Notes under the pieces: model-generated
Database searches by the model: none
Told to the model about the DNA's origin: nothing
The model's input: the letters and a program-made list of their open reading frames with translations, nothing else
Shown: positions 8,631-39,236 of the stretch, piece after piece
How the letters are laid out: each line of letters starts with the position of its first letter
Numbering within the stretch: position 1 is the first letter of the stretch
From: Chiloscyllium plagiosum
Lineage: Eukaryota
Assembly: GCF_004010195.1 (NCBI RefSeq)
Contig: NC_057753.1
Coordinates: forward strand, 12,170,842-12,234,841
DNA length: 64,000 nt
Reading direction: 5' to 3'
Program-made: the position numbers and the translations under genes

Positions 8631-10711
8631 AAAGAGACAAATAGGAGAGGCAGGAGAAGAATAATCGGGTTATTCCTTTCCGACAATAGCACCGGAATGT
8701 TGATAGAATCTCCCAAGCCGTTCACTTCCATCAATCAGAAGGACCAGGGCAGCAGGTCTCACACATTTCACTTCAACGCGCACACTCTCCTGTCTTGCGT
8801 AACATCTAGTACTGGAGATATCGATGACCAGTCACATCAACGAGTTCGTTCCAGGACGGAAAGAAGACCTTCGGCCCAGAGTCAATGCATCAGGTTCAGT
8901 GGCTCTTCTTCAGAACATCTGCATCGTCCCTGCGAGACACATCACCTTCATAACTCAGACATGTTTTTCGGGTGCAAAACAATGCAATGATATTCATACA
9001 AAACTACAGCCTAGTTACAGCAAAGAACGGAGGCCTTTCGATGACGCCTCAGTCCGTGTTACTCTCCCAGTTTATACTGCCTCACCTCGTTCCTCAACAA
9101 AGGTGTTGTTACACAATCTTGACAACAGGGCAGGAAAATGAAACTGCAGTCTCTTAGCTCTGTCATCATAGCTCTGACAGAGTGCAGTTGCCTGATTCAG
9201 GGGATACAATCACTTAATTCCAGCTCTTCTGAAGCAACCTATCTCTTTAGACTTATACTGGTACAGCTTCTTTCATTCAATCAGGGATCTGTTCTCACTT
9301 AACAATAACTTAATGGCGACAGCTTTCACGTAAGCAAAGCGTCTCGGAGTTTCACAGGAATTTCAGGTCATATTTAATCACATGACCGAATGCTTGGCCA
9401 AAGCGATCAGTTGTAGTGAGTGTTTTCAAGGAGGAAAACAAAGTAAAAGGTTTGCAAATATTTTGGGAGAAAATTCTAGGTTTCAGGGTCCAGGCAGCTC
9501 AGCAGGAGGGTATTCGAAATCGGCAATGAAGTGTGTTCGGAATCGGTGTTCTATGCACGTGGGCCCACAGCCAGAAATATGCGGATACTGGAGATCGAAA
9601 CTAATGATATTCAAGTGTTGGAGAGATTCAGCACATCTGGCAGCATTTGTAGAACACGTTTCAAAGGTGAATCTTTGGAATCGGAGCATTAACTATCTCT
9701 GTCTCTGTGAATGCTACCAGCGCTGCCGACTTCCTGATGTGCTTGCTCTTTTAATAAAGGTCTTACAATCTTCTTGTTTATTGACATGTTGTAAAGTGAA
9801 CGCTAGCTGAATCCACCTGTGCAATGGATAGGGATTCACTTTAACAAACTTTTAAAAAGTCCGAATCTCAGTGTTTCACCCAGAAGAGGTTTTAGCAGCG
9901 GTTAAAGGGGAAATAAACAAAGTGCAGTCATAGAACACAAATAGGAACATTCACAAGAGATCACACATCGTTATCTATTGGTAAAATCGTAGATGAAAAA
10001 CATTCAGAATCCACAACCAACGCTAAACCCTCGTCCAGAGAGGAAGAGCAATGATACTTCATCAGACTAATTGTTGGAATGGTCGGATTGTCCCTACAGT
10101 AAACTCCATCTGAATCCTCTACTGTATGGAAGAATGGGCGATAATCTTATTAAAACATGGAAAATCTTTCTCGGGTTAAATTATGACAGCAGTCAGAAAG
10201 GACTGTTGTAGAAACGGTTTGTTTGAATGTCTGAGAAAGTTAATTCATCATGTAAGTTCTGTGCGTTCACCACAACATTCTGACTGGACGATATCATTTT
10301 TGTCATCCTGACCTCAGTTGCATGACTGAGTGTAGCCACGTGCTTTAAGGTTCAGGTATCCTGATCAGATGTTTGACTAGGGTCCCACAGAGGTGCTCAA
10401 CATTAAATAATCACCAGCCCTATTGAATTAACATGAGGTGGGGGTGAGGCAGGGAGTTAAAGAAACTGATGCTGGGGACAGTGGAGTGGGGAACGCTGTT
10501 TTTGACTCCTTGCAGCATCATACCTCCACATTCTTTGTTCAACACATATGACTAAATAAACATGGATCGGGTACCCAGCTCATTACTGCGGGGCCAAGAA
10601 GGATTGCACCATGGCTGACAGAAAATGTCCTCACCTTCAACCCAAACCCCTCCCTTTGTTCATTGCGCGAGTGTGGGAGGTGGCTACATATCTAGTTCAC
10701 AGAGCTTGTGA

Positions 10712-10721
10712 AGTGACATAA
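10712..10721 (+). promoter_or_regulatory. TCR V promoter decamer/CRE-like site
   Basis: AGTGACATAA, a 9/10 match to AGTGAYRTCA, about 200 bp upstream of the NAR-TCR leader. Confidence 0.4.
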
Positions 10722-10919
10722 AACTGTCTGTTCCCTGCTCAAAACCTACTTATTCAAACAGTGCACGCCCAGAGACCTTGATTCCACAGGGCTCATTAAT
10801 CACCTCGTGGACACTGAAAAACAACCCAATTCATCTGAAATGCTTCAGTACAGGTCACGAAAGAAAATCCCAGAATAATTTGTCTTCCCATCATCAAACT
10901 ATCAGCTCCAAACACGGGA

Positions 10920-10965
10920 ATGATGGGCATCCTCCATGGTTTGATCCTGTATGTTGGTTTACCCT
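10920..10965 (+). CDS. NAR-TCR V leader exon
   Basis: MMGILHGLILYVGLP followed by a phase-1 GTGAGT donor. Confidence 0.85.
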
Positions 10966-11114
10966 GTGAGTATCGATCACAGAAACAAACATTGCATGAA
11001 ATTTAAAATACACTGTTGCCGATTTCGTTCACATTACAGGGATGGTCTGCAGTTTTCACTGCGTTGTATCGGTCAGTTCTAATGTCCGCTCATTTCTCTC
11101 TGTTTAATTTCCAG

Positions 11115-11401
11115 GTTATTTCAGTCAGTCAGTGACACAGAGCCCAGTAGCGGTTAATAAGAAGGAGTGTCAGTCTCTCACCATCAACTGTGTTTTTAAA
11201 AGTCGTTCTGTTCATCATTTTGAGAGTGGACATTTCTTTAGACAAACGCGGACAGCAACGGAATGGAAGCGGATCTCCAGTGGTGGGAGATTCGTTATGT
11301 TCACAGATAAAGCACAAAATTTATTTTCGTTGGAAATTCGGGATGTCAGAGTTGAAGACACCGCCACCTATTACTGTAAAGCTCGGTACCGGTACTACAC
11401 A
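11115..11401 (+). CDS. NAR-TCR V (IgNAR-like V domain)
   Basis: TTTCCAG acceptor in phase with the leader. SVTQSP...KECQSLTINC...FFRQ...KRISSGGRF...EDTATYYCKA has VNAR-like short Cys-Cys spacing with no CDR2 and a non-canonical FR1 Cys. RSS at 11402-11439 is CACAGTG + 22 bp + TCAAAAACT. Confidence 0.88.
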
Positions 11402-11741
11402 CACAGTGATGGGCCTCGGCTTCCCGTCGCTCAAAAACTCTCACTGGAGATTGTTACAGAAACAAATTGACAACTGAGCCAATCTGCCCAGAAAATCCCA
11501 CATTTCTGCTTCTCAGCTGCAAGTCAACCAATTTGCAATTAGACTGCATTATTGTTTATAAAATGTGTGTTTCACTGATAACAAGTGCGCTCTGATGGTG
11601 ATGTCTTTTTTCAAGGCTTGTGTGGGTGAATCGAAGTTAGGAATGATTGATCACAATTAAAGGAGACTGACGTGAGAAGTCTAACAACTGGAATCGGGAT
11701 TGCAAATCAGCTGTCATATCCAACTCCCAACAAGCCCTTGG

Positions 11742-11813
11742 AAGTTTTACACAGACTTATAGCACTGTCTCAAGTTGGAGCAAGACACAGTGAAAGGAGC
11801 CAGATCATATACC
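11742..11813 (+). other. NAR-TCR D segment (11770-11785) with 12/12 RSS
   Basis: AAGTTTTAC-12-CACTGTC [TCAAGTTGGAGCAAGA] CACAGTG-12-TCATATACC, midway between V and J. Confidence 0.8.
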
Positions 11814-12125
11814 TCTTTACAATTAAATTACAAATTCTCCGTCCCCAATAGTTAATTGTCAGCTTGAAGTTCACTTCGCTGTAATGCAGGTTGATATCTT
11901 TTCAATCTGCAGCAAGCACTAATTTCTTTACTCGATTCTTCTTCGCTGATATGAAGTGAAAATCAACCTCATGTATTCCTGTGCCATTTGAGAGAAGAAC
12001 AAGAGATTAGCTTGAGCCAAAGCAAACTTGGACACAGAGGACATGGTCTATTTATCTAAATCTCGTGAATAATTAGTTTGTTCAAGCAGCGTGCTGATGA
12101 TTTTTTGATGTTTTGAGGTACCACT

Positions 12126-12214
12126 GGTTCTTGTACGGAGGAGACTGAGAGGAGTATTGCTGTGTTATTATGACCATGTAGATGGATCCGGAACGGCGGT
12201 GACTGTCACAGCTG
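12126..12214 (+). CDS. NAR-TCR J segment (12165-12214) with 23-RSS
   Basis: GGTTCTTGT-23-TGCTGTG, then YYDHVDGSGTAVTVTA and a GTAAGT donor. The DGxGT motif is IgNAR-J-like. Confidence 0.88.
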
Positions 12215-14825
12215 GTAAGTGACTCTGCATTTCATCTTGCTATTCATTATGTTGCTGAACGATCGATTTATTTTTGTTCGTTTAAACGTGAAGAAAGTAA
12301 ACAAATATCTTAGAAAAAAATCGCTTCTGCTCCAATGCCGGAGTTGCGTGTCAGCAGAATATGCGTGTCTGGTCTTTGTTTCCTCAGGCGAAAAAAAAGA
12401 ATGACACCTGGCCCTGAGTCAGCGGTTTCGCTGTACCTGTGGTATCAGTGGCCCAGCGGGTCAATAGAGGGATACCACCAACATGGCGAACAGGTGCTTA
12501 AATGAAGGAGTGCCGACTGTCTGGAATCGATTCTACGAGTTACCTGCGACTGAGGGAGCTCCGTCTGTTGCTTAGGTCTGTGAGAAAGAACTTTGTACCA
12601 GGCAGAGATTCAAGCCCGAATTCCAAAAGTTCAACAAAAACATGTAACTCACGAGAAAATCAGAAATACTACTCAGCGAACCTCAGGTATAAGAGGTCTG
12701 GCTGTATGCCACGATGAATTATCCTATTTGAGGAATGGGTGTCAGGAATGATCGACTTACTATTTCTTTTCAATTCCTTTCATATATGCATTAATCTGAC
12801 CAATCATATTTCCATTTTACCAGCCTCTGAATTAAACGTGAAACTGTGAAGAATTTTGGTTTATTTAATGTAGGTATTTTGAGAAATCGATTTGTTGTAA
12901 TGAAGGTGCTTATTGGAATCAGTTCAAACTGAAGAATGCTCATTCGAGACAGCAAGTAACAATTCATCGAAAGGAATATTTGACAATTTCTGGGGCATCG
13001 ATCAAATTACAACTCCTCATCAAGCTGTTGAGTGAGTCATACAGAGGGAAGGGCTGGAATGGGTTCTAGCCTGAAATGATAGTTAGACATTTGTTCTCCT
13101 TAATTGAGAATGACTCGATTTGGTTTCGAGCAAGTAAAGCTACGCTTCACCAGGCATTCCCTTGGGATAGCGTTATTGTCTTCTGTGAGGGTATTCTGAA
13201 GCCTAAGCTCCATTACTTATCGTTTAAAAGAAGCAGGAGTGTTCTAATTTGAGCATATAGAATTTTAAGGGGTAGACATTAGATGGAATTTTCTCCAAAC
13301 AGGAAAGTCTAACCAACGGTCACAATTTGCGATTCAGGGACAGCAATTTGGACGACGAAGAGCAGAATGTTTTTCAGACGAACAATTGCCTTGAATTATT
13401 GGCATTCTGCATCTCAGAAAGCAGTGGAGACCCAAACGTTAACTGTTTCCACTGGTTCTGTTTTATTGGGGAAAAAACGAAGCATGAAGACACTTCATGA
13501 AAGTCTTAAATACGATGGCCTCGAAACTGGGATGAATGAGACTGAAATGTGAGTAATAGGCCACTAGCAGAACAAATAAAGTAATGAAGGTGAAGAAATG
13601 TGCAAAATGTGGAACTTGCCACAAGAGTAGTTGGAGCACATTGTATTGAGTCATTTATAGAACGTTTTGAAATCACAGGGAGGAGAATGGAATACATCCA
13701 CACAGTGTGTTGAATGGGCAATGTTAATTAGATTTCGGGCAGAAGTGAACTTTGGCATAAATGAACAGCCATAAATCAGTTTGGCTGAATGACCTTGCCT
13801 TCATATTTTAATGTAAAACTGAAAAGATTTCCACCCAGAATACAATAATTCAATCAAAGTAGCTGAAATTGAGGGAGATCTGAAAGATAGTTCCCAGTGT
13901 GCAACAGTCAAACAATCCCAGAAACAGGACAGACAGAACTCAACAGACAGCTGAGGTATTGGTGCAAGTTGCCAGGATTGCAAGAAAACAAAAAGGCGCA
14001 AAGGAAAGTCGAAGAAGAAAGTGACCTGATTGGGGAAAAGTTTGATCAAAAGTCGTGTATGCTCTCATGAACAGAGGAAACGTGCAGACAACGATTGAAC
14101 TAATCGGTGCTGATCAAACCCTATTTTGGATCCTGCTGTGCATGGTGCCGCACCATCGTTTGGTTACTTCTGCGTGGTTAATTTTGCAAATTTATTATAG
14201 AGTCACAGTGTCATGCAATTGATCAGGTTTCCCAAACCAACGTTGTCCATTTGCCTGTGTTTGGCCTGTATCTATTTCAACATTTCCCGCCTGTCATACG
14301 TTTCCAAATGATTTTTACCTGATTTCACTGTACTTGTCTCTAAGGACTTATCACTACACTTGGCAGTTAATTCCATATACGCACCACGCTCTCTGCAAAA
14401 CACTCCCTTTTAAATCATTCCCCTATCACCTTAAACATATGCCCTCCAGCTTCCAAGATAATCACTGGAGTTTGTCTGTCCGCCGAGTATGTGAATGCTG
14501 GCTTCTTCAGAATCTTTTATAATTGTTCCTACTGTACTTGCATTCTCCGCATAGCCCTTCATTGTCCGCCTGATTCAGCTGCTGTTGATTCCCCATTTGA
14601 ACTTTATTGTTAAATCACTTTCCAGCCCCCTTTTTGGCAATTTATTGCACGTCACAAGAAGAAGGTATGTAAAAGAAAGTGTCACCTGAACGCCTCATTT
14701 CTTCATATTCCGATAGAACAGAACAGATTCAAATCTAATGTCAACAAAGCGAACAGAATAATTCCTGTGCTTCGCAATTTATCTTTTCAACAGAGGCTGA
14801 ATAAATGTTCAATATCATCCCGCAG

Positions 14826-15133
14826 GTTTCTTTTCTCTCGTGTCCCAGAGTCCAAACCAACAAACCTCTGCTGTGGGTGACACCATTGCTTTAAGCTGTG
14901 AATACACAGGGTTCTGTCAGTACACAGTTTACTGGTACTGTCAGTCCCCAGGACAAGCTCCGAAATACATGCTTCAAAAATACACCTCAGGAGAGCAGGA
15001 TAAAGAAAATGCTGCAGGCGGGCGAATTTCTGCTCTCATTGATGCTGCGGCGAAAATCGCTTGGTTAATGATCTCGCAAATACAACAAGTGACTCCGCTG
15101 TGTACTACTGTGCACGAAGTGGCGCTCAGCACA
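14826..15133 (+). pseudogene. Leaderless supporting TCRdelta V of NAR-TCR, frameshifted
   Basis: CGCAG acceptor in phase with the J donor. FFSLVSQSP...LSCEYTGFCQYTVYWYCQ carries an extra CDR1 Cys. A 1-nt deletion near 15086 precedes SDSAVYYCARS. RSS at 15134-15172 is CACACTG-23-ACAAAAACC. No ATG-bearing leader exon was found upstream. Confidence 0.82.
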
Positions 15134-15420
15134 CACACTGATACACAGTGCGGAGAGAACTGCACAAAAACCTGAACACGCTGGGAATTACGGACAGTGT
15201 CACAGATCACGGAGACAGCTCAAAATACATGAACATGGGGTGATTGCAGACATAATGATACACAGCACAGAGAAAGCTTTCAAAAAAAAGGCTACTCGTG
15301 GTCGATTATACTGTGATAGTCACAGTACCACAGCACGGAGAAACCTGCACAAGATACTGAACATGGTCAGGTTACAGACAATCAGCGTCACAGAGCGTAG
15401 AGACAGCAGTACAAAATCAT
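15134..15420 (+). repeat. Tandem array of five degenerate RSS-like units (about 60-70 bp period)
   Basis: Recurrent CACAG..(C)GGAGA..(A/T)CAAAA..TGAACA units starting at about 15134, 15193, 15251, 15321 and 15381. Confidence 0.65.
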
Positions 15421-39197: not shown

Positions 39198-39236
39198 AGT
39201 TTTTGTACAGGGTCAGCCCAGTTCTCATTCTCTGTG
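39198..39236 (-). other. 23-RSS of V3
   Basis: Minus strand CACAGAG + 23 bp + ACAAAAACT. Confidence 0.88.

Follow-up and report, generated by a model that had tools for sequence, protein, structure and literature searches.

V segments are taken to carry one RSS each. Several RSS-like signals beside a single gene segment, as at the locus described here, are also a feature of the human IgH DIR segments, in which a D-like segment is flanked by multiple signals of the 12- and 23-spacer types. The DIR elements differ in being D-like and in having signals of mixed spacer length on both sides, whereas here a one-sided, regular repeat of 23-RSSs lies behind a V. The cassette that contains this V is of a known kind, the NAR-TCR cassette with a supporting V-delta, which was reportedly described by Criscitiello et al. 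in 2006.

In the sections of PMC1845163, PMC12227049, PMC6795676 and PMC3457774 that were available, the NAR-TCR cassette has the same architecture as found here, wherein a leader and NAR V-D-J precede a V-delta that has a cysteine in CDR1 but no leader, all within the TCR alpha/delta V region. These sections mention a single RSS at most behind the supporting V, whereas the members described below carry three to five. We have not found an RSS array behind a supporting V in print, and an earlier mention is possible: the literature searched, which left out Criscitiello 2006, Deiss 2019 and Ott 2021, held no description of one, and the supplement of PMC3964593 gave no match.

Two further systems are instructive. 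The supporting V of TCR-mu in platypus and marsupials likewise supplies the second V domain in a TCR chain of three domains, but the available part of PMC3457774 presents it as convergent, with IgH-like Vs in compact clusters, and mentions no RSS array. The platypus supporting V joins V to J directly, without a D (PMC3457774), just like the finishing join proposed below, and thus a D-less supporting domain can work. In mouse Igk (PMC11153149, PMC13190342), strong RSSs drive capture by diffusion whichever way a V points, and the nearest strong RSS upstream is used in secondary joins. The likeness to the present case lies in a megabase locus with Vs in both orientations, in capture set by RSS strength, and in a first join that can be replaced when an upstream RSS joins a later J. 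The mouse system differs in that each V has one strong RSS and the V is replaced, whereas here there are several RSSs and a second join would keep the V.

The window, by which we mean the whole 64,000-nt stretch of Chiloscyllium plagiosum DNA analysed (G000:C44:12170842-12234841), lies within the shark TCR alpha/delta V region. It includes a NAR-type V-D-J with a supporting V downstream in the same orientation (Table 1).

Table 1. Features of the cassette and of the array behind its supporting V, in window coordinates.
Feature	Position	Strand	Description
Leader exon of NAR-TCR V	10920..10965	+	ATG, hydrophobic core, GTGAGT donor
NAR-TCR V exon	11116..11439 (V coding part 11116-11401)	+	Single 22-bp-spacer RSS at 11402
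D-like segment	11763..11813 (D itself 11770-11785)	+	3' 12-RSS at 11786
Cassette J	12126..12214 (J itself 12165-12214)	+	Upstream 23-RSS, minus-strand heptamer at 12164; splice donor 12215
Supporting V-delta exon (assigned by sequence marks)	14826..15133	+	CDR1 cysteine, splice phase as J's, 1-nt frameshift behind 15085
Unit 1	15134..15192	+	CACACTG-23-ACAAAAACC plus linker; heptamer plus nonamer score 25 (conventional median 23)
Unit 2	15193..15250	+	Decayed 23-RSS copy, no CAC, plus linker; score -1; profile E 0.005
Unit 3	15251..15320	+	Decayed copy (CATAATG), longer linker; score 2; profile E 0.084
Unit 4	15321..15380	+	CACAGTA, spacer cut to 21, poor nonamer, linker; profile E 2.7e-7
Unit 5	15381..15419	+	ATCAGCG-23-ACAAAATCA, most decayed, no linker after; score 2; profile E 0.029

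Among the marks that PMC1845163 gives for NAR-TCR are a cysteine in the a-b loop of the NAR V and the loss of the tryptophan of WYRK. The translated NAR V has both, with the cysteine in KKECQSL and HFFRQ in place of WYRK, and its RSS reads CACAGTG-22-TCAAAAACT. The CDR1 cysteine of the downstream V lies in CEYTGFCQY. The phase-1 donor after J is compatible with the acceptor at 14825, which would bring J and supporting V together in frame, and gene models of other sharks splice J directly to the supporting V. The sole convincing leader of the cassette is the one in front of the NAR V, 4.2 kb from the first RSS of the supporting V (RSS1); it is also kept in C95439 and L038. A leader scan of the interval 12217-14825 returned one weak candidate (14213, poor donor GTATCT), in a rough test that overlooked the leaders of two conventional Vs. 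The D-like segment is kept in five other cassettes; its 5' signal (11763-11769) is weak, with GACAGTG instead of CACAGTG and a weak nonamer. Judged by the marks in PMC1845163, the downstream segment is a NAR-TCR supporting V-delta.

Immediately behind this V stand five head-to-tail RSS units of the 23-bp-spacer type with a period of 58-70 nt. The first-pass annotation had placed the five units correctly, with their heptamers and nonamer-like ends, and its TGAACA linker after three units is present after units 1, 2 and 4. A repeat-family search recovered a five-copy family with spacings of 59, 58, 68 and 62, although Tandem Repeats Finder, which had been proposed as the check, missed the array at score 30. 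Pairwise identity between units is 56-76% over 45 nt (random 60-mers, 0.50 with a maximum of 0.65). A profile of unit 1 plus linker built from 14 cassettes, which includes window unit 1 and therefore matches it by construction, recovered units 2 to 5 in a scan of the whole 64 kb. The next match elsewhere in the window had an E value of 0.61, which bears out the earlier claim that no other V in the window has such an array. Contigs from three DNA-like runs (X1 and X2 across the whole array, X3 across part) agree at 99% identity, and thus an assembly artefact is ruled out. The window RSS scan gave no minus-strand RSS between units, so all signals face one way. A cluster of D segments was also considered and is rejected because the pieces between units do not have an RSS on both sides.

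The units differ greatly in quality. Unit 1 combines a CAC heptamer, a 23 +/- 1 spacer and a consensus nonamer, whereas units 2 to 5 do not: three of the four are without CAC, and in the other the spacer is 21 nt long. Scored with our own heptamer and nonamer matrix, which was derived from 66 conventional RSSs in the locus and is distinct from RIC, units 2 to 5 reach -1 to 2, compared with a conventional 10th percentile of 13.4, and none of the four falls in the conventional range. The score of unit 4 is 0 with spacers of 22-24 and 6.5 with a spacer of 21. Unit 1 is thus likely to be the only window unit that RAG would cut, as predicted from these features.

The V itself had been called a pseudogene in the first-pass annotation, a view that does not hold. 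The 1-nt frameshift is present in the assembly and in the X1 contig, but the X2 and X3 contigs carry the missing base. A fixed pseudogene is therefore rejected, and the window supporting V is a polymorphic null allele. Because units 2 to 5 are below working range while the gene is seemingly intact in other animals, this lineage, at least, can do without the extra units.

DNA and protein searches of the genome found 16 supporting-V homologues. C5958 was omitted because its contig ends before its RSS, and all 15 homologues with downstream DNA have arrays behind them. Fourteen of these arrays were parsed into three to five units each, and L047 was counted by three profile matches. C95439 and C84158, and likewise C22974 and C17418, are near-identical pairs, and some homologues are probably alleles of one locus. 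Among 83 conventional TCR alpha/delta Vs, none had a downstream match to the unit profile; isolated weak RSS-like sites lie behind eight, none at about +60. A genome-wide pattern of two tandem near-consensus 23-RSSs gave five matches, all behind supporting Vs, and none in the reversed control. The array is, as these counts confirm, a family trait of the NAR-TCR supporting Vs examined in this genome.

One conventional V family, represented in the window at 39236 and 39120 on the minus strand, has a second RSS-like site 116 nt past its RSS. This site reads CACAGTG-22-ACACAAATC in the window and recurs in L076, L089 and L109. It scores 11.8-16.3 in four of the ten members shown, and its spacer is unlike that of the supporting-V unit.

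Extra units also appear in other sharks. A search with protein profiles of the unit in three frames, applied to protein models and not to DNA, found them in read-through models from Hemiscyllium (P0005), Rhincodon (P0037) and Stegostoma (P0045), and five RSS units in P0049, an ENA record. These matches score 13.8-30.5 bits, compared with a maximum of 11.8 in 550 shuffles. The other seven of the 11 tails examined contain unit 1 only or weak further matches; P0050 and P0052 were excluded from this evidence, because the C. plagiosum genome has cassettes that match their tails. In the sawshark model P0025 the protein breaks off within a few residues of entering a possible second unit (2.2 bits, below significance), and the sawfish models end at the first heptamer and are thus uninformative on extra units. 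The first-pass annotation had asked whether other supporting V-delta genes in this and other sharks carry the array, and both parts of the question receive a positive answer. No short cDNA-derived supporting-V proteins were among 128 candidates, and a metagenome scan yielded 54 loci, none above 43% identity and none with a supporting V.

The D and J segments that a supporting V would join share the contig with the window cassette. An RSS scan mapped one D-delta, 19 nt long with a 12-RSS before and a 23-RSS after it, at C44:14552210 (L117:2210-2228). Behind it come about 11 J segments and, beyond a gap, more than 100 others at 14.59-14.69 Mb, all on the plus strand (L117-L131). Many of these J segments have CACAGCA or CACAGCC heptamers, and parts of the region read N. 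C-delta was not located: TCR constant exons were absent among the best 150 matches listed of a Pfam C1-set search. The window cassette lies 2.37 Mb from D-delta and would be joined by deletion. The contig's other nine supporting Vs, which lie on the minus strand, would need an inversion to join, provided that the scaffold orientation is right; thus nine of the ten C44 cassettes point away from D-J-C. Well over 80 conventional Vs compete with a supporting V for the single D-delta. Reads on the exons and array of the C95439 cassette were absent from two single-cell runs (about 2 and 6 in 100 reads sampled, respectively) and from one probable RNA contig set, and X5 had zero reads on the window; the RNA sampling left the cassette uncovered.

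Whether the extra units have been kept by selection was approached by comparing six cassettes, drawn from four lineages, in which the V is intact or polymorphic; the pairs that they form are not independent. Cross-lineage identity is 0.694 for unit 2, 0.688 for unit 1 and 0.755 for the V exon, compared with a random-level 0.517 for flanking 60-mers, a contrast that would be inflated if, as may be the case, the flanks are not orthologous across lineages. Unit 2 is more alike than its flanks in 13/13 cross-lineage pairs. Within a cassette the identity of unit 1 to unit 2 is 0.663, no higher than the 0.676 seen across lineages, and recent homogenisation is therefore not the general cause of this likeness. 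Working-grade distal units exist outside the window. Of the 39 distal units, 11 combine CAC with a score higher than the conventional 10th percentile; all 11 belong to the 35 from other cassettes, and several are a perfect CACAGTG-23-ACAAAAACC with diverged spacers. The remaining 28 score below working range. Consensus-grade heptamers stand in units 2 and 3 of C22974 and C17418, in units 2 and 4 of the cassette at C44:13002k and in unit 2 of that at C44:12318k. Five of the eight cassettes with an intact or polymorphic V have a working-grade distal unit, which in four of the five outscores RSS1.

Other comparisons point the opposite way. Across the 39 distal units, agreement with the consensus is no better for heptamer plus nonamer than for spacer plus linker (0.71 versus 0.72, p 0.59), and the values for intact cassettes are 0.75 and 0.73. 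C22974 alone differs (0.80 versus 0.65, p 0.036 uncorrected); the internal units taken together show a weak excess (p 0.04). The test is itself weak because unit 1 reaches just 0.83 versus 0.74. Conservation drops with distance from the V, to 0.52 in the last units, as decay would predict. Taken together, the sequence evidence for selection on the extra units is mixed.

A separate question concerns the inner CACAG that the first-pass annotation had reported as kept in all five units and better conserved than the outer heptamer. The motif is indeed in 5/5 window units (at +10, +8, +10, +8 and +8), but it outdoes the outer heptamer in this copy and lineage only, being present in eight of 14 units of the window's lineage and in two of 34 units of other lineages. 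It is found in two registers, and a single substitution separates each of them from the start of the family spacer. A conserved 12-type RSS nested in each unit, letting the array pair with 23-RSSs, could be imagined from unit 1, where a perfect heptamer stands 13 nt from a perfect nonamer, together with the presence of the motif in every window unit. This nested CACAGTG-13-nonamer is seen in the window copy only, the spacing varies from 12 to 15 among units, and the nonamers of units 2 to 5 are poor. Among conventional Vs, one in the window with its RSS at 1276 shares this nested 13-nt pattern, and in five of the 83 an inner CAC precedes the nonamer by 11-15 nt. As a family feature the nested 12-RSS is rejected because the inner CACAG is lineage-specific, and we regard a conserved function for it as extremely improbable.

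What, then, is the array for? The reading that we favor, with about even confidence, is that an old 23-RSS amplification provides additional targets for RAG, which aid the capture of a promoter-distant V, the distal units having decayed in the window. Several RSSs behind one V would raise the chance of capture at D-delta/J-delta, as is suggested by the capture of Vs with strong RSSs in mouse Igk (PMC11153149, PMC13190342). A cut at a distal unit would join the linker, and not the V, to D or J, and its product would be mostly dead. Such a join would, under the 12/23 rule, keep RSS1 upstream of the joint and mostly stop the V frame. RSS1 would then be within a few hundred bases of the J segments left over, which carry 12-RSSs, and because of this proximity a second, short-range join of RSS1 to a later J could finish the exon. 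The family-wide part of the first-pass proposal, that the units concentrate RAG or offer alternative cut sites, thereby stands as the best reading for the family but sits poorly with the decayed units 2 to 5 of the window. For the window copy its other suggestion, a fossil, fits best, and its distal units are best read as relics under every reading considered. A transposition origin, also suggested there, is unsupported: the units run head to tail, and no signal-joint (heptamer-to-heptamer) arrangement was seen in the aligned arrays.

The main rival is that the whole family trait is a neutral relic, wherein one slippage or unequal crossover in the ancestral supporting V was copied with the cassette and has decayed since, with occasional refreshment from unit 1. 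Because the supporting Vs share one ancestor, 15/15 would count as one event, not fifteen. The 28 distal units below working range, the window's four among them, agree with this account, as do the increase of decay toward the last unit, the lack of extra conservation in heptamer and nonamer, and a weakly supported unit tree that groups units 1 and 2 of one lineage. It leaves unexplained why, between lineages with flanks at random level, unit 2 equals RSS1 in conservation and why several distal RSSs remain perfect despite diverged spacers, and a strong distal RSS that is neutral should cost productive joins; we consider this account somewhat unlikely. That units, spacers included, bind RAG or another factor and hold it near RSS1 while rarely being cut would account for conservation of the whole unit, in which distal spacers match the family consensus at 0.76 (conventional RSSs, 0.43), and for nonamer A-tracts that persist in units that have lost CAC. 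Yet nothing would prevent RAG from cutting a perfect distal 23-RSS, and distal nonamers are not specially kept (0.70), which makes such an antenna decidedly unlikely. Joining at unit 2 or later might instead add about 20 residues per unit to the CDR3 of the supporting V as a germline length switch, given that the V frame is open to unit 2 in C95439, C84158 and C4989 and through five units in P0049. We hold this to be very improbable: a stop precedes unit 2 in four of the five cassettes that have strong distal RSSs (+5, +5, +52 and +55) and lies at +5 in the window, unit 2 is dead in two of the three open cassettes, and of 56 protein models from cartilaginous fish, 26 go no further than the first heptamer. 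The open frame of P0049 runs for 105 residues through its five units, with TGG in both of the units whose frame would usually meet TGA at the heptamer, and may be chance among many models.

In a more elaborate version of the extra-target reading, the ladder programmes two steps. A sacrificial distal join would first bring the whole cassette, from megabases away, next to D-delta/J-delta and the locus enhancer, and the retained RSS1 would then finish the exon by a local join of V to J, possibly also licensing the NAR V-D-J join. We think this version unlikely; if true, it would mean that self-editing of one V segment is built into the germline.

If the extra-target reading is true, a row of RSSs would be a third way of tuning V usage, beside RSS strength and chromatin, confined to a single V family that is without its own promoter and needs two productive joins. 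The order and efficiency of the two NAR-TCR rearrangements would become testable by PCR on thymus DNA, and the window lineage, with its distal units dead, would be a natural control.

Two observations concern the cassettes themselves. At L046 (C44:12229500-12239499, overlapping the window end), a NAR V and J with frames that look intact lie on the minus strand; no supporting V was found downstream of them in L046 or the window, which makes this an orphan half cassette. In addition, the interval 10500-13300 of the window matches L044 (C95439) with a NAR V protein 100% identical and surroundings at 93-100%, whereas the supporting V plus array is only about 78-88% identical. The two halves of these cassettes thus seem, from the sequence comparison, to have different histories, by recent conversion or recombination between cassettes.
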